From contig JBBRQQ010000001.1 of NCBI GenBank assembly GCA_038226155.1, positions 55,548 through 119,547 of the forward strand: DNA of 64,000 bases, in the 5' to 3' direction. How positions within the stretch are numbered: the stretch's first letter is position 1; each line of letters begins with the position of its first letter. The stretch is from Burkholderiales bacterium (GTDB lineage Bacteria > Pseudomonadota > Gammaproteobacteria > Burkholderiales > Burkholderiaceae_C). Shown piece by piece: positions 2,532-47,790 of the stretch. A model generated the notes under the pieces. It did not search any database, had not been told where the DNA came from, and saw only the letters and a program-made list of their open reading frames with translations. Both the position numbers and the translations under genes were made by a program.

Positions 2532-3671
2532 CTAAAGGTCGCGCAGCGGATGCGTATCGGCTGTCCAAGGGCTGACAAAGAACGCATCTGCCATATCGGG
2601 TTTCACGTCTTCAATGCGCTTGGGAGACCATTTCGGTGTGTAGTCTTTGTCAACCGCCAAAGCGCGTATGCCTTCGACCGTTTCACTGGCCCCGCCCGGG
2701 CGCAAGTGAAAGCACTGCCACACCATGTCGCGCTCCATGCGCAGGTCGTCGGCAAAAGTCATGGTGCGTGCCCGGCGGATTTGCTCCAGCGTGACATGCA
2801 GCATGAGCGGTGAGCGTTTGCGCAAAACCGCTGCCGTTTTATACGCCCACGGGTCCTGCGACTTTTCCAGCGCATCAACGATGTGTTTGACGCGTAGCAG
2901 CGAAAAATAGCTGTCAATAATGGCTGTAGAGGCCGCAGGACTTGCGTGACCAGCTATTAATTCAGTAGCAATCCATTGATCGAATTCGGCGACAGACCCA
3001 AAAATCTGGTTGCCCAGCGAGTTCCACAGCACCGGCAATTGGGTGGCATCAAGTTTGATGTCAGCCAGGCCATAACCGATAGCCTCGTCCGCCCCAATCA
3101 CATCCCCCGTCAGCGCCAGGTATTCGCCAACATGGCCAGGGCAACGGCTTAAAAAGTAACCCCCACCAACGTCAGGAAACAGCCCAATGTTGGTTTCGGG
3201 CATCGCCATTTTGGTGTCCTGCGTGACGATGCGCAGTCTTGCCCCCAATGAAATACCCAAACCGCCACCCATGACCACGCCATCCATAAACGCGATGTAG
3301 GGCTTGGGGTAGGTCTTGATCAGATGGTTGAGCGTGTATTCCTCGGTGAAGAAATCTTCAAGCGCCTGAAGCTGGTCGGCATGACCCGACAGCGCAGCCT
3401 GGTGAAAAAACCGGATGTCACCACCCGCGCAAAATCCGCCGAACAAGCTTTCAGGCGTGCCGGGCCGTCCGACCTTGTTGGTGCCGCGTATCGCCACCAG
3501 CATTACGGCCGGGTCATCCCTGAACGCCAGCAAAGCCTCGGACAAATCGCGCACCATTTGCAGGCTGAGCGCGTTAAGCGCCTTGGGGCGATTCAGCGTG
3601 ATGAAGCCGACCTGGCCGCGCATCTCGGTCAGCACCTCGCCGCTGGTCCTGGGTTGGTATGTCTGGTTCAT
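2532..3671 (-). CDS. enoyl-CoA hydratase/isomerase family protein (3-hydroxyisobutyryl-CoA hydrolase-like)
   Basis: Starts MNQTYQPRTSGEVLTEMRGQVGFITLNRPKALNALS and contains FCAGGDIR and AFMDGVVMGGGLG crotonase motifs. Its ATG (3671-3669) overlaps the upstream gene's TGA by 4 nt (ATGA). The 601-aa track ORF is a frame read-through artefact. Confidence 0.85.
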   Translation of the reverse strand: MNQTYQPRTSGEVLTEMRGQVGFITLNRPKALNALSLQMVRDLSEALLAFRDDPAVMLVAIRGTNKVGRPGTPESLFGGFCAGGDIRFFHQAALSGHADQLQALEDFFTEEYTLNHLIKTYPKPYIAFMDGVVMGGGLGISLGARLRIVTQDTKMAMPETNIGLFPDVGGGYFLSRCPGHVGEYLALTGDVIGADEAIGYGLADIKLDATQLPVLWNSLGNQIFGSVAEFDQWIATELIAGHASPAASTAIIDSYFSLLRVKHIVDALEKSQDPWAYKTAAVLRKRSPLMLHVTLEQIRRARTMTFADDLRMERDMVWQCFHLRPGGASETVEGIRALAVDKDYTPKWSPKRIEDVKPDMADAFFVSPWTADTHPLRDL

Positions 3672-4603
3672 GCTCTCTGTCTCCATCCCATCAATTCGTT
3701 GGCAGCCAGCGCGCCCATGACCAGCAAGCCACCGATCAAAACGCTGGCAGCCGGCACCTCGCCAGCACCCAGCCAAGCTAACAGGATGCCAAAAATAATC
3801 TCCAGCAACGCCAGCAAGGACACCTCCGGCGCCTTCAGCACCCGCGCGCAGATCACGGCCAGCACGCACGGAATTGCCAGTTGTACCAAGCCGAGCAGGG
3901 CCAGCAGGCCCAGGTCGCGACCGGTGGCGGCAAACGGAAAGGCCAGCGGCAAGGTCACCAGCGAGGAAAGCGCTGCGCCCACCAGCACGGCAGGCACCAA
4001 GTCGATTTTTTCGCCCTGTGCCTGACTGCGCTGCACCACGGTCCAGTTCACAGCGGCGGCCATCGGCACCAGCAGGGCCACCAGAGTGCCTGCGAACTGC
4101 CCGATGCCGCCGCCCAATTTGAGCTGACTGCCATACATCCAGGCAATTCCCGCGCCGGCCACGGCAATGGCCACCCAGGTCCTCGGCGCAATGCGGTAAC
4201 CGACGAAGATACGTCCGATCAGTGCGGTCAGCAAGGGGCCCAGAGCCATGGTCACCAGCACATTGGCAACCGTGGTCATGGTCAGCGCCAGCATGAAGGC
4301 TGTGAACATGATGCTCCAGCAGATGCCGGAGATCCACAAATAGCGACCCGCGTGACGGATTCCGAAAAAAATCTGACGCCCCTTGAACATCGGCAGTAAC
4401 ACCAGCAGCGACAGCAAGGTGAAGAAGCTGCGCCAGAAGGTCACTTCAAAGCTGCGCGCCGACTCAAGGTGACGCGTGACCACACCGGCGATCGACCACA
4501 TCAGAGTGATCAGGATCATCAACAGAACGGCCCGGTTATGTGTGAGTTTCATCAACGGCAGGAAGCTACACGCTAGTAGAGCGACCGTGGGGGTCGCATT
4601 CAC
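3668..4603 (-). CDS. DMT (EamA) family transporter
   Basis: Ten predicted hydrophobic helices, with EamA-like LMWSIAGVVTR and a repeated half-structure. An alternative start is MKLTHN at 4552. Confidence 0.8.
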   Translation of the reverse strand: MNATPTVALLACSFLPLMKLTHNRAVLLMILITLMWSIAGVVTRHLESARSFEVTFWRSFFTLLSLLVLLPMFKGRQIFFGIRHAGRYLWISGICWSIMFTAFMLALTMTTVANVLVTMALGPLLTALIGRIFVGYRIAPRTWVAIAVAGAGIAWMYGSQLKLGGGIGQFAGTLVALLVPMAAAVNWTVVQRSQAQGEKIDLVPAVLVGAALSSLVTLPLAFPFAATGRDLGLLALLGLVQLAIPCVLAVICARVLKAPEVSLLALLEIIFGILLAWLGAGEVPAASVLIGGLLVMGALAANELMGWRQRA

Positions 4604-6506: not shown

Positions 6507-7472
6507 TCAATGTGCGGCTTGCAATATGTCCTGGACTTCAATCGGGCTCAGCAGACGCTGGGGAATCAGCTCATCAGCTGTGATGTGGGCTGACCCTAGA
6601 AAAGCAGGTGGGTCAGACCCATAGACCTGTACCAGCGGTGCGTCGGCACCCCACTGGCCGGGTGTGCCCCGCCTGCGCAGGCCACTTAAAAACCGCCCTG
6701 CATTGTCGGCATCCAATGTGACAGACGGATAATTGCTGACCAGTGACTGCGCTGGCAGCAGGCGCGCTTCACGCTCCGGCTCTGTCATGGCCTCTAGCGC
6801 CGCAAGACTGACGCACTGGTCGGCCACAAAACCACCGGTTTCAATACGCCGCAGCGAGCCGAGGTGAGCACCGCAGCCAATAGCCTCGCCAATGTCTTCA
6901 CCGAGCGTTCGAATGTAAGTGCCTTTACTGCACCTCACTATGATTTTAATAGCTGGTCGCGCCCGTGTATCTTGGTCCACAGCCATTTTTAGCTTGTAAA
7001 TAACGATGTTTCGAGCCTCTCGCTCGACCTCTTCGCCACGCCGGGCGTATTCGTACAAAGCCTTGCCGTCCTTCTTGAGGGCTGAGTACATAGGCGGAAT
7101 TTGCGCCAGCGGGCCGGTGAAATGGGCCGTTATGTCTGCAAGCAGTTCAGGTGTGATGGTGGGTACAGGCCGCGTCTCGGTCACTTCGCCCTCAGCATCC
7201 CCCGTGCTGGTTTTTTCACCCAACACCAACAGGGCCTCATAGGTTTTGTCGGCGTCGAGCTGGATCTGGCTGAATTTGGTGGCCGCGCCAAAGCACAGTG
7301 GCAACACGCCCGTCGCCAGCGGATCCAGCGTGCCCGTGTGACCAGCTTTGTCAGCGCGCAGCAACCACTTAGCCTTTTGCAAGGCCTGGTTGCTAGAAAG
7401 GCCGATTGGTTTATCAAGCAGCAACACCCCGTGCACAGGGCGCCTCTGCACCTTTGTGCGGAGTTTCTGCAT
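6507..7472 (-). CDS. truB: tRNA pseudouridine(55) synthase
   Basis: GVLLLDKPIGLSSNQAL, GHTGTLDPLATGVLPLCFG and CSKGTYIRTLGEDIG motifs. Confidence 0.95.
   Translation of the reverse strand: MQKLRTKVQRRPVHGVLLLDKPIGLSSNQALQKAKWLLRADKAGHTGTLDPLATGVLPLCFGAATKFSQIQLDADKTYEALLVLGEKTSTGDAEGEVTETRPVPTITPELLADITAHFTGPLAQIPPMYSALKKDGKALYEYARRGEEVEREARNIVIYKLKMAVDQDTRARPAIKIIVRCSKGTYIRTLGEDIGEAIGCGAHLGSLRRIETGGFVADQCVSLAALEAMTEPEREARLLPAQSLVSNYPSVTLDADNAGRFLSGLRRRGTPGQWGADAPLVQVYGSDPPAFLGSAHITADELIPQRLLSPIEVQDILQAAH
6937..6995 (+). repeat. In-CDS copy of the dispersed GCTAT-hairpin/CGCCCGTA repeat, inside truB
   Basis: ACTATGATTTTAATAGCTGGTCGCGCCCGTGTATCTTG matches the 43007 copy at 31 of 38 positions. 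It then continues collinearly through ATTTTTAGCT. Confidence 0.7.
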
Positions 7473-13106: not shown

Positions 13107-14711
13107 CTAGCTATGTGCGGCCACCAGCGCTTGGGTATACGGATGCTGCGGCGCTTTTAATATGGCGCTTACCGACCCTGTTTCAACCACCACCCCATCC
13201 TTCATCACCAAAACCTGGTGCGCCATGGCGGCGATCACGTCCACATCGTGGGTGATCAGCAAATAGCTCAAACCGTGCTCCCTTTGCAGCCTCTGCAACA
13301 GTTGCAAAACCTGCTTCTGGATGGTGACGTCCAATGCGCTGGTAGGTTCGTCCAGCACCAATAGTTGCGGTTCTACCATCAGTGCCCGCGCAATGGCGAT
13401 ACGCTGCCTCTGCCCGCCCGAAAACTCGTGCGGATAACGCTGCAGAATATTGGCAAACTGGGCCTCATGCATGCCAACGTCGGCCAATGACTTCAGCACG
13501 CGTTGCCGACGCTCTGCAGCGCTCAGGCCGGGTTGGTACACCTGAAGTCCCTCGCCAACAATTTCTTCAATCGTCATGCGCGGCGACAGCGATGAAAACG
13601 GGTCCTGAAACACCACCTGCATAGCCTGGCGTATGGCTTTATTGCTGGCTGAATGACCGCTCCAGGCCTTGCCGATCACCTCCAGTTGGCCTTCATGCGG
13701 ATGCAGGCCCAGCGCTGCCAACGCCAGACTGGACTTGCCAGAACCCGACTCACCCATCACACCCAGCGTTTGCCCAGCCGGAATCTCAAAACTGGCACCC
13801 CGCACCGCTACAAACCGGCCCGCCTTGAACCAGCCTTTAAACCCCGACATTGAAACCGAATAGCTGACGCGCAGGTCTTTGGCCTTCATCACGGCGGGTA
13901 GTGACAGATCTGGCGTCACCCCGTGAACATCGCGTGTCGGTGTACTTTCGATCAGCTTGCGAGTGTAGGCATGCTGCGGATTGCTGAAAACATGGTCAAC
14001 CGCGCCATGCTCGACGATGTACCCGTCTTCCATCACCGCTACGCGCGTCGCAAAACGGCGCACCAGGTTCAGGTCATGCGTGATCATCAGTACAGCCATG
14101 CCATTTTTTCGCTGCAAATCAGCCAGCAAATCAAGGATTTGGCTGCGCACCGTCACGTCAAGCGCCGTGGTTGGCTCATCGGCTAGCAGCAGCATGGGCT
14201 TGCAAGCCAGCGCCATGGCGATCATGGCGCGCTGGCGCTGGCCACCCGAGAGCTGGTGCGGGAAGGAACGCGCCCGCCGTTCGGGTTCGGCAATGCCCGT
14301 ATCTGCTAGCAATTTAATAGCTGCCTGTGCTGATTCTGATTGGGTCAGGCCCATTTTTAGCTGCAAAACTTCGGCAATCTGGTCGCCCACACTGAAAAGC
14401 GGATTCAGCGCCGTCATCGGCTCCTGAAAAATCATCGAAATGTCCTGCCCACGAATGCCGCGCAACTGGCGTTCCGGGGCCGCCAGCAAATCGACTTCGC
14501 CCGCACGTCCTTGAAACACGGCGCTGCCGCCCAGCGATGCGTTTTGCACCAGCCGCAGCAGGCTAAGGGCGGTCACTGTTTTACCCGAACCTGACTCACC
14601 TACCAGTGCCAGCTTTTCGCCGGGCGCTATTGAAAAGTCAATGCCGTGGACGACCTCTTTGCCCGCAAAAGAAATTCCCAGGCCTTTGACTTCGAGAAGG
14701 GGTTTACTCAT
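13107..14711 (-). CDS. yejF: peptide/microcin-C-type ABC transporter, fused double ATPase
   Basis: Two Walker A motifs (GESGSGKT, GESGSGKS), two LSGGQRQR signatures and two Walker B motifs; 534 aa. Confidence 0.85.
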   Translation of the reverse strand: MSKPLLEVKGLGISFAGKEVVHGIDFSIAPGEKLALVGESGSGKTVTALSLLRLVQNASLGGSAVFQGRAGEVDLLAAPERQLRGIRGQDISMIFQEPMTALNPLFSVGDQIAEVLQLKMGLTQSESAQAAIKLLADTGIAEPERRARSFPHQLSGGQRQRAMIAMALACKPMLLLADEPTTALDVTVRSQILDLLADLQRKNGMAVLMITHDLNLVRRFATRVAVMEDGYIVEHGAVDHVFSNPQHAYTRKLIESTPTRDVHGVTPDLSLPAVMKAKDLRVSYSVSMSGFKGWFKAGRFVAVRGASFEIPAGQTLGVMGESGSGKSSLALAALGLHPHEGQLEVIGKAWSGHSASNKAIRQAMQVVFQDPFSSLSPRMTIEEIVGEGLQVYQPGLSAAERRQRVLKSLADVGMHEAQFANILQRYPHEFSGGQRQRIAIARALMVEPQLLVLDEPTSALDVTIQKQVLQLLQRLQREHGLSYLLITHDVDVIAAMAHQVLVMKDGVVVETGSVSAILKAPQHPYTQALVAAHS

Positions 14712-18637: not shown

Positions 18638-19441
18638 ATGGGTTTTCTAACTGGCAAAAAATTATTAATCACAGGGGTATTAAGCAACCGCTCCATTGCC
18701 TACGGCATTGCCAAAGCCTGCCACGCACAAGGCGCAGAGCTGGCCTTCAGCTACCAGGGCGAGCGCTTCAAAGATCGCATTACCGAATTTGCCGCCGACT
18801 TTGGCTCAAAATTAGTGTTTGACTGCGACGTGAGCAGCGACGAACAAATTGCGCAATTGATGACTGACCTGACCCAGACCTGGCCCACCTTCGACGGCTT
18901 TGTCCACGCCATCGGCTACGCCCCGCGCGAAACCATTGCCGGCGACTTTCTCGACGGCCTGTCGCGTGAGGGCATCAAGATTGCCCACGACATCAGCGCG
19001 TACAGTTTCCCAGCCATGGCCAAGGCTGCCCTGCCCTACCTGAACGACAAATCGTCCGTGCTGACGCTGACCTATCTGGGCGCTGAACGCGTGGTGCCCA
19101 ACTACAACACCATGGGCCTGGCCAAGGCCAGCCTGGAGGCATCGGTGCGCTACCTGGCCGAATCACTCGGCAGCAAAAAGCGCGGAATGCGCGCCAACGG
19201 CATCAGCGCCGGCCCTATCAAAACCCTGGCTGCCAGCGGCATCAAGGGCTTCGGCAAAATCCTGAGCGTGGTCGCAGAAGCCTCGCCGATACGCCGCAAT
19301 GTGACGATTGAAGACGTCGGCAACGTCGCCGCGTTTTTGCTCAGTGACCTGGCAGCAGGCGTGAGTGCCGAGATTACCTACGTCGATGGTGGTTTCAGTA
19401 ATGTTGTGGGTGGGATTGCGGAGCCGGCTGATTCGGCCTAA
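18638..19441 (+). CDS. fabI: enoyl-[acyl-carrier-protein] reductase (NADH)
   Basis: [27 protein letters not shown], and [19 protein letters not shown] carrying the Tyr/Lys catalytic motif. Confidence 0.9.
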
Positions 19442-19454
19442 AGCCAGCATTTTG

Positions 19455-19535
19455 GCCTGAAAAATGCATTTTTCAGGCACTAAATACGGCTCTAGCCCAA
19501 TAAGTACGGGCGTGAACAGCTATTTTATTTATAGC
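19455..19535 (-). repeat. Intergenic copy D of the dispersed repeat, including a perfect 24-nt palindrome
   Basis: The reverse strand of 19498-19535 reads GCTATAAATAAAATAGCTGTTCACGCCCGTACTTATTG. Positions 19455-19478 read GCCTGAAAAATGCATTTTTCAGGC, which is its own reverse complement. Confidence 0.8.
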
Positions 19536-19601
19536 AATTATTTTTGGTCGAAGCGTTCGACTGGTTTTTTTAATGTCGAAGTTAGGTAAAAGGAACACAT
19601 C

Positions 19602-24762: not shown

Positions 24763-24852
24763 GGAAGGGTGGATGAGCGGTTTAAGTCATACGCCTGGAA
24801 AGCGTACGTGGGGTTAAACCCACCGCGGGTTCGAATCCCGCCTCTTCCGCCA
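24763..24852 (+). tRNA. tRNA-Ser (anticodon GGA)
   Basis: 90 nt. Acceptor GGAAGGG pairs with CTCTTCC (one G.T pair). Anticodon arm is TACGC-CTGGAAA-GCGTA. It has a long variable arm, a GGTTCGAATCC T-loop and an encoded CCA. Confidence 0.95.
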
Positions 24853-33969: not shown

Positions 33970-36900
33970 TCAGCTGTTAATTTGCTGCCAGGCTTTGTCC
34001 AGGCGCTTGATGCTAATCGGCTGCGGCGTGCGCAGCTCCTGCGCAAAAAAGCTCACCCTCAGCTCTTCCAGCAACCAGCGAAACTCCTGCATGCGCGCAT
34101 CGCTTGCGCCTTTACGCTCTGCCAACAGGCGCCAGTAGCGTTGCTCTTGTGGCTTTAACTCTGCCATGCGAGCCGCATCACGGGCCGGGTCTGCCCGCCA
34201 CTTTTCAAGTCGAGCGGTGATGGCTTTCAGATAACGTGCAAAGTGCTGCAACTGCACATACGGCGTGGTCGTCAAAAACCGCTTGGGCACCAGGCGCTGC
34301 AACTGCTGGCCTGCGTCCTGCGCAGCATCCACCGCATTTTTGATGTCCTTGATCTTGCGTTGAGCCGCAGCGTATTCAGTCAATATGCCTGCGGCAAGGC
34401 GCGAGATTTCGCTGGCAATCAGGGTCAGCCTGCCGCGCCCATCTTCCACACGCTTTTTAAACTCAGCTTCGTTGGTTGGCAAGGGGTCGAGCAGAAATGC
34501 CCGATCCAGCGCCACTTCAAGGATCTGGCCACGCAGCTCTTCAACTGTGCCACCTCCAGAGTTGTCTGGCGCGCGGCCTACAAGCATGTAGCTGGCGGCC
34601 ATCTTCTGCAAGTCGGGCAGGTTCTTCTCGAGGTACTTGAGTGCGTCTTTTATTTGTAAGGAAAACAGCCGCCTCAAACCAGCGCGGTGCCTGGCCAGCG
34701 CCATCTCAGGCTCGTCAAATACCTCAATAGTCACAGCATCAGCCAAGTCAATCAGCGCCGGAAAACCAATCAGTGTTTGCGAGCCTTTTTTGATCTCCAT
34801 AAGCTCAGGCAGCTCGCCAAAGCTCCAGGCGGTGTAGCGCTCGGGCACCTTTACAGCGGCAGGCTTTGCTATGTTTTTAGTAGCTGCTAGCGCCCGTATT
34901 TGTTGGGCTTCAGTCGTTTTTTGCCCTTCAAATTGACCTAAATCAGTGGTTTTTGCGTCTTCAAGTGCAAAATCAGGCAGATTCTTCAAACTTGCCAGCG
35001 CCTGAAAGGCCCCACGCGCTTGCGAGCCCAGTTCGCCCTTAAGCCCACCTAGACTGCGACCCGTGCCCAATTGCCGGCCATGCTCGTCCAGCACCCGAAA
35101 GTTCATGAACAAATGCGCCGGCAGCATCTCCAGCTTCATGTCACCACGCTTGATGTCGAGCGAAGTCTTGTCAACCACCAGCTTGAGAACGGCATCCGTC
35201 AAAGAACCCGTGCCAAATACTTCTGCCTGATTCAACTGCTCTGCCATGCGTGCAGCGGTTTCAGGTAAGGGCACGAGGCGGGAGCGTGGTCTTTGGTGCA
35301 GGGTTTTAATCAAAGCCTGTACCTTGTCTTTAAGCATTCCAGGCACCAGCCATTCGCAGCGCTCTTCATTGACCTGGTTGAGCGCAAACAGCGGCACGTC
35401 AATCGTCACACCGTCTTTGGCGTCCCCTGGCTCATGCAGATAGGTCGCCGTGCAGTCCACACCGCCCAGCCGGATCACCTTGGGAAAGGCCTGCGTCGTG
35501 ATGCCTGCGGCCTCATGGCGCATCAGCTCTTCACGGGTTAGCAGCAGCAGCTCGGGCTGCTTTTTAACCTCGTCCCTATACCAGTGTTCAAAGCTTGCAC
35601 CGCCGCAAATGTCAAGCGGCAGTTGCTGGTCATAAAAAGCGTAGATCAGCTCTTCATCGACCAACACGTCTTGCCTGCGCGCCTTGTGTTCGAGGTCTTG
35701 CACCTGGTGTATGAGCTTTTCATTGGCATTTAAAAACGGCAGCCTGGTGTCCCAGTTTCCAGCGACCAATGCTTCGCGAATAAAAATCTCTCGCGCAGTG
35801 ATCGGGTCAACCCTGCCAAAGTTGACGCGTCTGCCGCTGTAGACGACCAGGCCATAGAGCGTTGCACGCTCCAGCGCGGTAACTTGCGCAGCCTTCTTTT
35901 CCCAGTGCGGGTCAAGCAACTGTTTACTGAGCAGATGCCCCGCCACCTGCTCTATCCACGCCGGGTCAACGTTGGCGATACCGCGGCCAAACAGGCGTGT
36001 GGTTTCGACCAGCTCGGCCACCACAATCCAGCGGCCCGGTTTTTTGGCTAAACGCGCACCCGGATGGCGGTAAAACTTGATGCCGCGTGCGCCCAGGTAC
36101 CAGTCTTCTTCATCGCTCTTGCAACCGATGTTACCCAACAGACCACAAAGCATGGAGAGATGCAATTGCTCGTAGCTTGCAGGCTTTTTATTTAACTCCC
36201 ACCCTTGCTCGCCCACGGTGCTGACGAGTTGGGAATGGATATCGCGCCATTCGCGTACCCGGCGCATGTTGATGAAGTTTTCTCTCAACAAATTTTCGTG
36301 CTGTCTATTCGTCAGTTTATGCACTGCATCATGGCCACCACGCGAAGCACCCAGCCACTTCCACAGCTTGAGGTAGCCTGAAAATTCGCTCTTGTCGTCA
36401 TCAAACTTGGCATGTTGATGATCCGCCTGGGCCTGCTTGTCCATGGGCCGGTCTCGCACGTCCTGCACGCTGAGGGCACTGGCAATTACCAGCACTTCGT
36501 CGAGCGCGCCACGCTCCTTGGCCTCCAGGATCATGCGGCCAACGCGCGGGTCTAGCGGCAGTTTTGACAGCGTCCAGCCAACAGGCGTTAGCTCGTTGTC
36601 AAGATCCACCGCGCCCAGCTCAGCCAGCAGCTGGTAGCCATCGACAATCGCGCGCTTTTGCGGTGGCTCGATAAATGCAAAATCTTCAACCGCACCCAGT
36701 TGCAGCGCCTTCATGCGCAAGATCACCGATGCCAGCGAACTGCGCAAAATTTCCGGGTCAGTAAAGCGTGTGCGACCTGAAAAATCCTGCTCGTCATAAA
36801 GTCGTATGCAGATGCCATCAGCCACCCGCCCGCAACGCCCTGCCCGCTGGTTGGCCGCCGCCTGCGAGACAGGCTCAACCATCAACTGCTCGACCTTGCT

Positions 36901-37923
36901 CCTGAAACTGTAGCGCTTGACGCGTGCCGTACCAGCATCAATTACAAAACGGATGCCCGACACGGTGAGCGACGTTTCAGCCACGTTGGTTGCCAGCACA
37001 ATGCGCCTGCCAGAGTGGCTGTCAAAAATGCGGTCTTGCTCGGCCTGGCTCAGGCGGGCAAACAGCGGTAGCACTTCGGCGTTGCGATTGAGCGGCTGGT
37101 GTGCGAGGTGCTTGCGCAGGTGGTCAGCCGCTTCACGAATCTCGCGCTCGCCGGGCAGAAAAATCAAAATATCGCCAGCGCTGTGCGGGCTTAACCAAAG
37201 CTCGTCGACTGCGTCGGCAATCGCATCATTCAGGTCATAGTCGCGCGACTCTTCGTATGGGCGATATCTCTGTTCAACCGGAAACATCCGTCCCGACACC
37301 ATGATCGTAGGCGCTGGCCCTTTTGCAGAGCTGAAGTAATCCGCAAACCGCTGCGCATCAATCGTGGCCGAGGTGATGATGACCTTGAGGTCAGGCCGGC
37401 GCGGCAGCAACTGGCGCAAATAGCCGAGCAAAAAGTCAATGTTCAGGCTGCGCTCATGCGCCTCGTCAATGATGATGGTGTCGTAGGCATTCAGAAGGGG
37501 GTCGGTCTGCGTTTCGGCCAGCAATATGCCGTCGGTCATCAGCTTGACCGAGGCGTCACGGCTCAGGCGATCCTGAAAGCGCACCTTGTAGCCCACCACA
37601 TCGCCGAGCGGCGTTTTAAGCTCTTCAGCAATACGCTTGGCTACGCTGGATGCGGCGATACGCCGGGGCTGTGTGTGGCCTATGAGTTTGCCGCGCTGGC
37701 CCGCCGGGTAGTTGAGCTTGCCCCGACCCATAGCCAGCGCAATTTTGGGCAACTGCGTGGTTTTGCCCGAGCCGGTTTCACCGCAGACGATGACGACCTG
37801 GTGCGCCGCTATGGCCGCGGCGATCTCATCGCGTCTGCCGGATACCGGCAGCGATTCAGGAAACTCTATGGGCAGCAATTTGGCTGAAGATGGCAAAAGT
37901 AAGGACAAGGACGGCAAGGCCAT
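33970..37923 (-). CDS. hrpA: ATP-dependent RNA helicase HrpA (DEAH box)
   Basis: GETGSGKTTQLPK, DEAHERS, TSAT and QRAGRCGR motifs; 1317 aa. Confidence 0.95.
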   Translation of the reverse strand: MALPSLSLLLPSSAKLLPIEFPESLPVSGRRDEIAAAIAAHQVVIVCGETGSGKTTQLPKIALAMGRGKLNYPAGQRGKLIGHTQPRRIAASSVAKRIAEELKTPLGDVVGYKVRFQDRLSRDASVKLMTDGILLAETQTDPLLNAYDTIIIDEAHERSLNIDFLLGYLRQLLPRRPDLKVIITSATIDAQRFADYFSSAKGPAPTIMVSGRMFPVEQRYRPYEESRDYDLNDAIADAVDELWLSPHSAGDILIFLPGEREIREAADHLRKHLAHQPLNRNAEVLPLFARLSQAEQDRIFDSHSGRRIVLATNVAETSLTVSGIRFVIDAGTARVKRYSFRSKVEQLMVEPVSQAAANQRAGRCGRVADGICIRLYDEQDFSGRTRFTDPEILRSSLASVILRMKALQLGAVEDFAFIEPPQKRAIVDGYQLLAELGAVDLDNELTPVGWTLSKLPLDPRVGRMILEAKERGALDEVLVIASALSVQDVRDRPMDKQAQADHQHAKFDDDKSEFSGYLKLWKWLGASRGGHDAVHKLTNRQHENLLRENFINMRRVREWRDIHSQLVSTVGEQGWELNKKPASYEQLHLSMLCGLLGNIGCKSDEEDWYLGARGIKFYRHPGARLAKKPGRWIVVAELVETTRLFGRGIANVDPAWIEQVAGHLLSKQLLDPHWEKKAAQVTALERATLYGLVVYSGRRVNFGRVDPITAREIFIREALVAGNWDTRLPFLNANEKLIHQVQDLEHKARRQDVLVDEELIYAFYDQQLPLDICGGASFEHWYRDEVKKQPELLLLTREELMRHEAAGITTQAFPKVIRLGGVDCTATYLHEPGDAKDGVTIDVPLFALNQVNEERCEWLVPGMLKDKVQALIKTLHQRPRSRLVPLPETAARMAEQLNQAEVFGTGSLTDAVLKLVVDKTSLDIKRGDMKLEMLPAHLFMNFRVLDEHGRQLGTGRSLGGLKGELGSQARGAFQALASLKNLPDFALEDAKTTDLGQFEGQKTTEAQQIRALAATKNIAKPAAVKVPERYTAWSFGELPELMEIKKGSQTLIGFPALIDLADAVTIEVFDEPEMALARHRAGLRRLFSLQIKDALKYLEKNLPDLQKMAASYMLVGRAPDNSGGGTVEELRGQILEVALDRAFLLDPLPTNEAEFKKRVEDGRGRLTLIASEISRLAAGILTEYAAAQRKIKDIKNAVDAAQDAGQQLQRLVPKRFLTTTPYVQLQHFARYLKAITARLEKWRADPARDAARMAELKPQEQRYWRLLAERKGASDARMQEFRWLLEELRVSFFAQELRTPQPISIKRLDKAWQQINS
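34868..34978 (+). repeat. In-CDS copy of the dispersed repeat, inside hrpA
   Basis: GCTATGTTTTTAGTAGCTGCTAGCGCCCGTATTTGTTG matches the 43007 copy at 32 of 38 positions. It extends to AAAATCAGGC at 34969-34978, giving 111 nt or 37 codons. Confidence 0.75.
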
Positions 37924-40800: not shown

Positions 40801-40833
40801 GCACCTCAGTCAATTAAAAAAGCCCCGCAGGTT

Positions 40834-40866
40834 GCTACAGTTTTAGTAGCTGGCCACGACCGATCT
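40834..40866 (+). repeat. Truncated intergenic copy C of the dispersed repeat
   Basis: GCTACAGTTTTAGTAGCTGGCCACGACCGATCT. It has a perfect GCTAC/GTAGC stem and abuts the stop codon of the acyltransferase gene. Confidence 0.65.
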
Positions 40867-41926: not shown

Positions 41927-43005
41927 AAGGCCTCAATCAACGACATATCGGGCTTGGCAAGCCAGGCCGAGAACTCATCAGCCAGTTGCTCTGCCTGCGA
42001 GGTCGATTGTGACCACGCTTTGACGCGCGCCTGCAAGTCAGGCCCATAGCGCACAAAGTCGGTACGGTCAGGCAGCTTGCTGTTGGGCAATGTTTTGATC
42101 CATTCAGCGCTTGGGGCCAGCACCACCATATTGTCCAAAAAAGGCGTTGCGCCATGCCGCCATTTCAGGCCTTTGTCTAACCAGCCGGGCACGATAGCTT
42201 TTTGAAAATGCGGGTACAACACCAAAGGCGCACTGGGCTCGGGCGCCTTGTAATTGAGGTGAAGGTGGTAATCGGTGATGCCGCCGTCCCAGTAGGCCCC
42301 CGGCGGCGCACCGGGAATGTTATGCACGGCGCGCAGCACAAACGGAATCGAGCAACTGGCTTGCAGTGCGGGCTGAAAGTTGGCTTCATCCAGATGGATT
42401 TGCCGGGTGCGGTAATCGCTGCCTGAAAACGGCAATGCAGCGCCCTGGCTCGAGAACACCACCCGTTCCAGCCAGGCACCCATTGCCTTGCGGTGCAGGC
42501 TGTTGCTCAGAAAAGCGCCAAGGTAGCCAAGCGGCGTGGCAATTTTGTGCTCGCGCGTCAGCACATGGCGGCCGCGTGACGTGACGATATGCAGCTTGTA
42601 ACGTGGGTGCTGCAAAACCTCTTGCGCCCTGCCGCGGTAAAAGTCTTGCAGGCTTTTACCGAACTGCTCGCTCACCACATCTGCGCTGGGCCGCTTTTGC
42701 CCAGGCTGCAGTTCGTAGTGAGTGGCAATGTAGTCGCGCTCCAGCCGTTTGAAGGCCGCTACCGGGTCATCAAGGCAAGCCGTCGCCATGCGCCACGCAC
42801 CTATGGAGGCGCCCACCAGATGCACCGGCTGAGTGCTCGTCGACAACCAGTCGCCAAAAATAAATCGATCCAGCGGCCCGAGAACCAACCCCTTGGGTCC
42901 ACCCGCAGCACCGGGGACGATGCCCACGTCCGCAGGTCTGAGTCCGTTTTGCTCGATGTGCAGCCGCGCCTTGGGGCCAGCGTAAATACGCAGAACATTT
43001 TTCAT
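41923..43005 (-). CDS. patatin-like phospholipase family protein
   Basis: Oxyanion GAAGGPKG, nucleophile elbow GASIGAW, and catalytic Asp in YWDGGITDY. Overlaps the downstream acyltransferase gene by 4 nt. Confidence 0.8.
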   Translation of the reverse strand: MKNVLRIYAGPKARLHIEQNGLRPADVGIVPGAAGGPKGLVLGPLDRFIFGDWLSTSTQPVHLVGASIGAWRMATACLDDPVAAFKRLERDYIATHYELQPGQKRPSADVVSEQFGKSLQDFYRGRAQEVLQHPRYKLHIVTSRGRHVLTREHKIATPLGYLGAFLSNSLHRKAMGAWLERVVFSSQGAALPFSGSDYRTRQIHLDEANFQPALQASCSIPFVLRAVHNIPGAPPGAYWDGGITDYHLHLNYKAPEPSAPLVLYPHFQKAIVPGWLDKGLKWRHGATPFLDNMVVLAPSAEWIKTLPNSKLPDRTDFVRYGPDLQARVKAWSQSTSQAEQLADEFSAWLAKPDMSLIEAL

Positions 43006-43006
43006 T

Positions 43007-43096
43007 GCTATTATTTTAGTAGCTGGTCACGCCCGTATTTATTGACTTGTGGCTATTTTTAGCTGTTGAAAATGGCTTTTTTTGGGTTTTTCAGGC
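43007..43096 (+). repeat. Intergenic copy A of the dispersed repeat (full length)
   Basis: GCTATTATTTTAGTAGCTGGTCACGCCCGTATTTATTG...GGCTATTTTTAGCTG...TTTTTCAGGC. It starts 2 nt upstream of the patatin ATG. Confidence 0.8.
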
Positions 43097-47688: not shown

Positions 47689-47706
47689 TCGCATCGCTAT
47701 AACTTT

Positions 47707-47790
47707 GCTATAGTTTTAATAGCTACTCGCGCCCGTATTGATTGAGCTTCGAGTGATTTATGCATAAAAAATGGGCTGAAAATTGCTTAA
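47707..47790 (+). repeat. Intergenic copy B of the dispersed repeat
   Basis: GCTATAGTTTTAATAGCTACTCGCGCCCGTATTGATTG followed by ...GGGCTGAAAATTGC, upstream of serA. Confidence 0.8.

Follow-up and report, generated by a model that had tools for sequence, protein, structure and literature searches.

The window analyzed here is a stretch of 64,000 nucleotides (nt) from contig JBBRQQ010000001.1 of a Burkholderiales bacterium (assembly GCA_038226155.1). It contains an intact hrpA gene for an ATP-dependent RNA helicase, and inside this gene, in antisense orientation and in frame, lies a copy of a short interspersed repeat belonging to a family with essentially no members outside Polaromonas. The closest database proteins to the window HrpA are those of Polaromonas (85–96% identical). 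Its best match among solved structures is full-length Escherichia coli HrpA (9ggr/9gft, E = 0), aligned in two blocks covering query residues 16–977 and 1032–1316. The Pfam domains found in the HrpA orthologs are DEAD, Helicase_C, HA2, OB_NTP_bind, and DUF3418. The following features were found at this locus:

33970..37923, minus strand: hrpA, the intact host gene for the 1317-aa ATP-dependent RNA helicase, identified by its open reading frame (ORF), the full-length match to E. coli HrpA, and the Polaromonas orthologs
34866..34940, plus strand (antisense to hrpA): conserved core of about 75 nt of the repeat copy, encoding roughly LGQFEGQKTTEAQQIRALAATKNIAK
34864..34985, plus strand: full similarity to the intergenic copies of the window, by a three-copy profile; includes HrpA residues 983–1019

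The string at positions 34868–34905, quoted exactly in an initial annotation of this DNA, occurs once in the window. It is identical at 32 of 38 positions to 43007–43044 in the intergenic copy A, as that annotation had stated, at 31 of 38 positions to 47707–47744, and at 30 of 38 positions to a copy in the truB gene. The proposed ends of the two elements were also verified, with AAAATCAGGC located at 34969–34978 and its counterpart TTTTTCAGGC, the end of the 43003 copy, at 43087–43096. The hrpA copy is translated as ...PDFALEDAKTTDLGQFEGQKTTEAQQIRALAATKNIA..., corresponding to HrpA residues 983–1019, directly N-terminal of ERYTAWSFGELPE; the protein contains ...LKNLPDFALEDAKTTDLGQFEGQKTTEAQQIRALAATKNIAKPAAVKVPERYTAWSFGELPE.... 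Both remaining coding-strand frames have several stops across the copy, and the segment is presumably translated through its one open frame. The core at 34866–34940 has a GC content of 0.43 versus 0.57 for hrpA; for the patch as compared with the gene, the GC content is 0.42 versus 0.57 and the GC content at third codon positions (GC3) is 0.25 versus 0.66.

The Repeat Family and Its Copies in the Window

Two profiles were used for the detection of family members. The first, built from only the three intergenic copies of the window, matched 34864–34985 with E = 2.6e-13 over model positions 8–138, which is nearly the whole model. The second, an nhmmer profile of 110 core copies from other genomes, was searched against 1.0 Mb comprising the window and all loci, and 205 matches were found; the hrpA copy was matched at 34866–34940 (E = 4.8e-14, model positions 5–79) without gaps. 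No match below E = 0.01 was found in reversed or triplet-shuffled versions of the same 1 Mb, and chance similarity of the hrpA copy was ruled out by these controls. Thus, the presence of an in-frame repeat copy in a full-length hrpA, the central claim of the initial annotation, was confirmed by profile E-values of about 1e-13 with empty controls, together with the 1317-aa ORF and the E. coli match.

In a repeat search of the window, a 61-nt repeat group with 72–77% identity was formed by 34864–34924, 6933–6993, 43003–43063, and 47703–47763, with reverse-strand relatives at 19460–19538 and 2944–2972. In addition to the hrpA copy, the following family members and related stretches were found in the window:

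6938..7007, plus strand (antisense): in-frame copy in truB (ORF 6507..7472, minus strand), encoding IVIYKLKMAVDQDTRARPAIKIIV; core profile E = 1.7e-12
19466..19539, minus strand: intergenic copy; core profile E = 6e-16
43004..43076, plus strand: intergenic copy A between a patatin-like gene and tex, with a tail to about 43123; core profile E = 5.6e-10
47704..47778, plus strand: intergenic copy; core profile E = 4e-12
40832..40862, plus strand: partial copy consisting of just the left 31 nt, located between convergent genes; three-copy profile E = 8.5e-4
14302..14368, plus strand (antisense): weak, decayed or ancestral element-like stretch in a yejF-like gene (13107..14711, minus strand), encoding ...TQSESAQAAIKLLAD; E = 1.6e-4
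2940..2974, minus strand (gene sense): short partial match inside an enoyl-CoA hydratase-like ORF (2532..4337, minus strand); E = 1.1e-3, three-copy profile only

Copy A scores E = 1.2e-27 with the three-copy profile, of which it is a seed. The tail of the 19539–19466 copy (region 19435–19498) contains a near-perfect palindrome, CCTGAAAAATGCATTTTTCAGG, and the partial copy at 40832..40862 is kept in locus L001 at 7116–7146. The stretch at 14302–14368, found with the three-copy profile, reaches 13 bits with the core profile. The match at 2940–2974 covers about 30 nt of the left end of the repeat (83% over 29 nt) and encodes ..IATELIAGHA..; its significance is borderline and doubtful.

The family consensus, ttGCTATnnATTTAATAGCTGCTTGCGCCCGTATTTATTGGGCTAGAGGCCTATTT, is a core of about 75 nt. 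When 110 copies were aligned in anchored and in gapped form, a core of the same length, ttGCTATnnATTTAATAGCTGCTTGCGCCCGTATTTATTGGGCTAGAGGCCTATTTnatncntAAAAa, was obtained, with a sharp left edge and a diffuse right side. The 111-nt element initially proposed is thus real as a span of similarity, whereas its well-conserved part is about 75 nt and the remainder is a lineage-specific, weakly conserved tail. The family has a GC content of about 42%, and its copies are dispersed. Blocks TAGCTG and CGCCCGT stand in fixed register in more than 100 copies from many species, a conservation that is partly imposed by the strict search pattern itself. An AT-rich palindrome, GCTATTAA-T-TTAATAGC, is located at the left end of the consensus, and in the core a small hairpin, GCCC-N9-GGGC, comes after A(G/A)TAGC. 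Antisense translation of the consensus gives GPF*ASNRPLAQ*IRAQAAIKLIAI. The consensus is therefore not open in the most-used frame, that of hrpA: it holds two TAA stops, which read GAA and CAA in the window hrpA copy and had to mutate for this copy to become readable.

A strict pattern, GCTATNNNTNNARTAGCTNNTNNCGCCCGT, was scanned in one genome per species, and at least 112 stretches were found. Among the matches listed, nearly all belong to Polaromonas, and the few others belong to Hylemonella, Rhodoferax, and metagenome-assembled genomes (MAGs) of Burkholderiales. Two strict copies (L051, 254–283 and 2160–2189) were found in a contig labeled as a MAG of the alphaproteobacterium Asaia bogorensis, which is probably mis-binned.

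Structural hallmarks were sought with negative results. RNAalifold on 131 distinct copies gave no structure for the plus strand and only a 3-bp helix for the minus strand, so that a conserved RNA structure was rejected. A known RNA family was also rejected, since the Rfam scan of the window at the gathering threshold gave nothing at the family copies and only a tRNA elsewhere. The k-mers adjacent to the left edge are found again downstream at no higher frequency than control k-mers, and reverse-complement matches to the left end are no commoner than in a reversed control. With these tests for target-site duplications (TSDs) and terminal inverted repeats (TIRs) negative, and with a diffuse right edge, the hallmarks of a MITE (miniature inverted-repeat transposable element) are absent from the family, and this assignment was rejected.

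The HrpA Linker and the Age of Its Repeat Copy

The C-terminal 617 residues of HrpA were modeled by AlphaFold with a mean predicted local distance difference test (pLDDT) score of 92.4 and a predicted template modeling (pTM) score of 0.83. The sole low-confidence region comprises model residues 281–325, i.e., protein residues 981–1025, and is essentially without secondary structure; pLDDT falls below 50 at residues 991–1004 and 1007–1019 (model residues 291–304 and 307–319). The element-encoded residues therefore coincide with one linker, predicted to be disordered, that leads from a long helix to the next beta strands. This agrees with the surface-loop check proposed in the initial annotation, as the element residues form the only disordered stretch in a confident model. 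On its N-terminal side, the linker adjoins the helix whose end reads ...ARGAFQALASLKNL, and on its C-terminal side, the conserved ERYTxWSFGELPE strand.

Alignment of orthologs also revealed the expected length difference at this site. Only 10 residues of E. coli HrpA stand opposite 54 in the window HrpA, and most of the distant HrpAs (50%-identity cluster representatives) have 44 residues in the span that holds 88 here. Closer relatives (37–65% identical; metagenomic proteins and Tepidiphilus) have variable low-complexity expansions of 30–80 residues at exactly the same site. The segment is always present and hypervariable among the 120 closest HrpAs, and nearly all of them have a recurring ...SNRPxAQxGRAQAAPExIA block, which corresponds to what the family consensus encodes in antisense. 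Thus, the linker is disordered in the model, hypervariable, and tolerant of indels, and the copy contributes residues of approximately 983–1019. The element peptide would then be a tolerated spacer and no new domain. In the closest non-Polaromonas representative, P0121, the linker reads SLPSPPGRGQGEGK...SPHPSPLPKGEGA, which looks like a translated GC-rich palindrome of the REP (repetitive extragenic palindromic) type, a different repeat. In Burkholderiales, the linker of HrpA may be a site at which repeats land recurrently.

The copy is neither private to this genome nor recent. Orthologous hrpA copies, with E from 1e-10 to 1e-14, were found in L001, L002, L004, L006, L007, L008, and L020; at the orthologous site, no family score was obtained in L003 (JS666-like, locus GC 0.65) or L005 (protein P0080). 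In a neighbor-joining tree calculated from HrpA sequences minus the linker and rooted on P0122, P0133, and P0121, the motif-free P0080/L005 is sister to all other sequences, and the JS666 type is nested in a clade of motif-bearing relatives. The identity to the window hrpA at 4-fold degenerate sites is 0.38 for L005 and 0.50–0.76 for the others. Together, these sequence comparisons indicate a single acquisition after the split of L005 (NC_groundwater_594) and before the radiation of the remaining sampled Polaromonas, with vertical inheritance since and later decay. In lineages whose HrpA is 87–96% identical, the copy can still be recognized; in GC-rich lines, of which JS666 is an example, it has decayed.

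It had been noted initially that conservation of the segment in genomes lacking the family would make the similarity coincidental or hrpA the source of the intergenic copies. This objection does not hold, since the genome of L005 carries an intergenic family copy elsewhere, at locus L050 on the same contig.

Copies in Other Protein-Coding Genes

At least 15 distinct protein-coding sites hold a family copy. The orientation and frame used in hrpA result, elsewhere in Polaromonas, in a peptide of the type AQxIRAQAA(T/I/P)xxIA. The proteins encoded by genes with family copies, beyond HrpA and TruB of the window, are as follows:

Pgi (L036, L067): hrpA orientation and frame
PurK (L096, L097): hrpA orientation and frame
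Asparaginase, ansA-like (L026, L030): hrpA orientation and frame
LpxK, partial copy (L026, L030): hrpA orientation and frame
YejF-like ABC ATPase (L015): hrpA orientation and frame
PHA (polyhydroxyalkanoate)-depolymerase tail, M48-like protein, and DUF455-like protein: hrpA orientation and frame
ThiL, DadA-like oxidoreductase, and YgfZ-like protein: opposite orientation
AceE: third frame

The initial statement that only one frame can be tolerated is therefore valid for the hrpA copy but not for the family, of which other frames or the opposite orientation are used in ThiL, AceE, and the DadA-like and YgfZ-like proteins. Long ORFs spanning copies (GC-rich antisense #20, #40, #132, and others) were judged spurious or upstream leaders and were left out of the counts.

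In truB, the copy at 6938–7007 is antisense, is read in the same frame as the hrpA copy, and encodes ...KMAVDQDTRARPAIKIIV. TruB is intact, with the copy in a well-folded part of the protein, and compared with its E. coli counterpart it has only four more residues in the stretch encoded by the element; no length variation was found among 120 Polaromonas TruBs. The truB gene at L050, which represents the earliest-branching Polaromonas lineage, reads LKLAPATDVSGQPAVWLVARCSKG at the same position with equal length. The window and L050 genes are identical at 22–27 of every 30 positions along the gene and at 11 of 30 over a gap-free, sharply bounded patch, about 60 nt long and coincident with the core. 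The GC3 of the truB patch is 0.39 versus 0.62 for the gene.

The copy in the gene for the YejF-like ABC ATPase was found at L015 1898–1967 (E = 2e-11), and its decayed version is the window stretch 14302–14368. The element-like stretch covers a conserved helix before the ABC signature. The protein is one residue shorter than Mycobacterium tuberculosis Rv1281c, with element-encoded ALSIRAQAAIKLLAD aligned to the native helix KKAARRRAVELLDLV, and no indel was found at the element site in approximately 100 YejF homologs (from Variovorax, Rhodoferax, Acidovorax, Ramlibacter, and others). The yejF alleles range from native-like to element-like. Similarly, Pgi has one residue fewer than 9fzt, and its segment NPPPAQKGRAQEATEKIADEL is aligned onto native 9fzt sequence. 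Over-extension of the alignments as the cause of the TruB and YejF matches was rejected, as they are ungapped over model positions of approximately 3–77 and the truB patch is sharply bounded between the window and L050.

Net changes of −1 to +4 residues in TruB, the YejF-like protein, and Pgi imply that the core of 23–25 codons replaces native sequence in folded proteins. The pattern does not discriminate among a templated patch (gene conversion or template switching from another copy), an insertion with compensating deletion, strong survivorship of events at sites whose native peptide is similar to the encoded one, and, for yejF, an origin of the family. These equal-length in-gene patches, in truB of the window and in yejF and pgi of other Polaromonas, are the most interesting lead of this study.

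Mode of Entry and Relation to Known Repeats

Between the same protein anchors, the hrpA region is 573 nt long both in the window and in L005. The two genes are identical at 18–26 of every 30 positions, lose homology over about 120 nt, and regain it afterwards; the full similarity span 34864–34985 corresponds approximately to this patch without homology to the L005 allele. The initial proposal of a 37-codon insertion thus holds in part: in E. coli HrpA and most of the distant HrpAs, this site is occupied by only about 10 residues, but the L005 linker has the same total length as that of the window without any repeat similarity. With lower confidence, we infer that the patch replaced pre-existing linker sequence of similar length rather than being added as a block. 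Likely routes would be templated repair or gene conversion from another copy, or an insertion with a compensating deletion, and selection would retain only events preserving the frame, the length, and a compatible peptide. The whole explanation, in which the hrpA segment is a real copy of the Polaromonas repeat, acquired once and long ago by patch-like replacement and kept as a tolerated spacer, is considered probable. An extension of it is more tentative and, in our judgment, somewhat doubtful: the family may spread by templated, conversion-like overwriting of about 75 nt, in frame and free of transposon hallmarks, in essential genes (truB, yejF, pgi, lpxK, and hrpA), with the copies then kept throughout the history of the genus and with seeding of the family by a yejF fragment as a possible beginning.

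Several points weigh against the replacement of native sequence by an old, neutral copy. The equal length of the hrpA alleles could be a coincidence, because the same region has 537 nt in L003, 561 nt in L006, and 573 nt in L007, and with a linker of such variable length hrpA alone cannot settle whether the copy adds length. The direction and mode of entry are drawn from few lineages, among which no pair of alleles was seen with the repeat present and absent and a clean length difference. The linkers of L005 and JS666 could represent former copies that have become unrecognizable through decay, rather than repeat-free ancestors. Gene conversion normally requires flanking homology, and none is visible in the GC-rich L050 allele of truB. 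The YejF homologs of other genera already read ..SAQAAIELLA.TGI, and the yejF site may be a pre-adapted target or even the family source instead of an overwritten site. Translation of the hrpA segment is deduced from its open frame and the conservation of that frame. Finally, the hrpA core is more conserved between orthologs than 4-fold degenerate sites (0.96 versus 0.76, 0.82 versus 0.68, and 0.61 versus 0.50, in a comparison that mixes codon positions), so that some constraint or homogenization appears to be acting; such slow evolution hints at a constraint at the DNA or peptide level that a neutral spacer does not explain.

A plain insertion, as in RPE- or MITE-type elements, would mean that a mobile element of approximately 111 nt added 37 codons to a surface loop and that only open-frame insertions survived. 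It is consistent with the extra length of the HrpA region relative to E. coli and most HrpAs, with the disorder of the segment in the AlphaFold model, and with its AT-richness and foreign codon usage. Moreover, RPE, ERIC, and the 107-bp Correia element are well-documented cases of small repeats fused in frame, and some hosts are longer (AceE by about 15, ThiL by about 7, and asparaginase by about 6 residues) than the E. coli sequences. However, the L005 allele is equally long without the element, related HrpAs without the family have comparable linkers, TIRs and TSDs do not exceed controls, and there is no long stem-loop. The conserved unit, furthermore, is about 75 nt and not 111 nt, and a core of 23–25 codons changes the length of TruB, YejF, and Pgi by only −1 to +4 residues; plain insertion is thus regarded as unlikely.

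In another explanation, the core (about 75 nt) would function as a DNA or RNA motif that is recognized by a nucleoid, recombination, or uptake-type protein and accumulates wherever it is tolerated, by biased conversion or by a drive of the kind proposed for uptake signal sequences. Equal-length occurrences inside genes, the fixed register of the conserved TAGCTG and CGCCCGT blocks, the AT-rich palindrome at the left end, the slow evolution of the hrpA core, and the gradation of yejF alleles all suit such a motif. Nevertheless, point mutation cannot build up a motif exceeding 60 bits, so the copies need a template and a transfer mechanism is still required. The strict blocks are partly a product of the search pattern, the excess of core over 4-fold identity mixes codon positions, no consensus RNA structure was found, and both competence and a binding protein are purely hypothetical here, which leaves this explanation with very little probability. 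The reverse direction, with the family born from a fragment of hrpA, truB, or yejF and the in-gene copies being the source or its homologs, draws on the YejF homologs of family-free genera: these encode ..EVLQLKxGL.....SAQAAIELLA.TGI, near the core antisense ASNRPLAQ*IRAQAAIKLIA, with unchanged length. On the other hand, the hrpA and truB patches are compositionally foreign (GC3 of 0.25 and 0.39 versus 0.66 and 0.62), the patch is missing from the earliest-branching lineage, whose genome has an intergenic copy (L050), and the core stands in the same register in at least 12 unrelated genes, most of which must therefore be recipients. An origin in yejF would explain one site only, with a transfer mechanism still needed, and an origin of the family in any of these genes is extremely improbable.

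Rickettsia palindromic elements (RPEs) were the system to which the hrpA copy had initially been likened. In the published descriptions on which this comparison relies (Ogata et al., 2000, as presented in PMC2229807 and PMC10969869), RPEs are small interspersed repeats of 105–150 nt fused in frame into conserved genes, where they add 30–50 residues. Relative to these descriptions, the likeness lies in an interspersed family with intergenic and in-frame copies in housekeeping genes whose products stay intact, in the surface, non-structured position of the hrpA copy, and in the recurrence of the element peptide in unrelated proteins. Unlike the RPE hosts so described, Polaromonas is a free-living betaproteobacterium and has no reduced intracellular genome; its unit is about 75 nt instead of 105–150 nt, and the copies in TruB, the YejF-like protein, and Pgi take the place of native residues and leave the net length about the same, in contrast to the 30–50 residues added by RPEs. 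Thus, the likeness holds for in-frame copies in conserved genes but fails for the element itself, as the Polaromonas family has no long stem-loop, TIR, or TSD, and its consensus is not open in the most-used frame.

The intragenic ERIC, YPAL, and 107-bp Correia elements are non-autonomous repeats fused to host ORFs in several frames and orientations (Delihas, 2007; PMC2229807). The Polaromonas family resembles them in having open frames fused to host ORFs and in using several frames and orientations. It differs in being shorter and restricted to Polaromonas, and in having none of their TIRs, TA target duplications, and stable stem-loops. Repeats named BRE have 29 copies in Polaromonas sp. JS666 and occur in other Comamonadaceae, with some copies wholly inside coding sequences (Hot et al., 2011; PMC3110155). 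The presence in Polaromonas and within coding sequence is shared, but identity with BRE was rejected: the published units (TTTTTTTGGCCGCGGGCCGCCCAAGGCAAAAAAGCCCCC..., 75–91 bp, 69% GC, often tandem) are GC-rich and unrelated by inspection, whereas the Polaromonas family is dispersed with a GC content of about 42%. No description of the family was found in the literature, with the MITE attributed to the JS666 genome paper left outside the comparison. With BRE different and Rfam empty at the copies, the family appears to be undescribed so far, as the initial annotation had supposed for this lineage.

REPs are GC-rich palindromes of 20–40 nt with a GTAG head and a hairpin, almost exclusively extragenic and mobilized by the Y1-type REP-associated tyrosine transposase (RAYT). 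The Polaromonas repeats are likewise short and highly abundant without TIRs or TSDs, and A(G/A)TAGC with the GCCC-N9-GGGC hairpin recalls the REP head and hairpin. Unlike REPINs, no paired arrangement was seen among the copies, and an approximate RAYT probe gave nothing below E = 0.5 in 1 Mb around them. With the uptake signal sequences (USS) of Pasteurellaceae and the DNA uptake sequences (DUS) of Neisseriaceae, the family shares in-gene copies without change of gene length, preferred frames, and a tolerated peptide. USS/DUS cores of 9–12 nt (about 30 nt extended) can, however, arise by point mutation, while the conserved Polaromonas block of about 75 nt stands in fixed register and exceeds the motif size of approximately 10–30 nt expected for such sequences.

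In-frame invasion of housekeeping genes by repeats is known mostly from Rickettsia and is usually tied to reductive evolution; here it extends across a free-living, widespread genus. The dated, vertically inherited copies in hrpA and truB permit the measurement of decay and constraint. If confirmed genome-wide, near-equal-length replacement in folded proteins would point to an uncharacterized process of templated patch copying in bacteria, and, if true, overwriting would be a mode of repeat–protein co-evolution distinct from RPE- or MITE-type insertion. Such replacement, once confirmed, would also serve as a natural experiment on the amount of foreign sequence that the core of a protein tolerates. 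The family marks the genus, and its AT-rich islands of atypical codon usage could mislead gene callers, detectors of horizontal gene transfer, and recombination scans.

Additional features were observed around the analyzed copies. In L015, tandem units ...CCCCGCTGGGGGAGGCGAGATA(T)AAAT... of an unrelated repeat family follow closely downstream of the copy near position 455 (minus-strand orientation). A tRNA gene of 87 nt is the sole match at the Rfam gathering threshold in the window. In several lineages of Polaromonas, a 52-aa ORF that has no Pfam match and lies on the opposite strand directly follows hrpA on its downstream side. The positions of these features are as follows:

24763..24849, plus strand: tRNA gene in the window
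L001 14030–14188, L003 14044–14202, L005 14015–14173, and L006 13987–14145: 52-aa ORF downstream of hrpA

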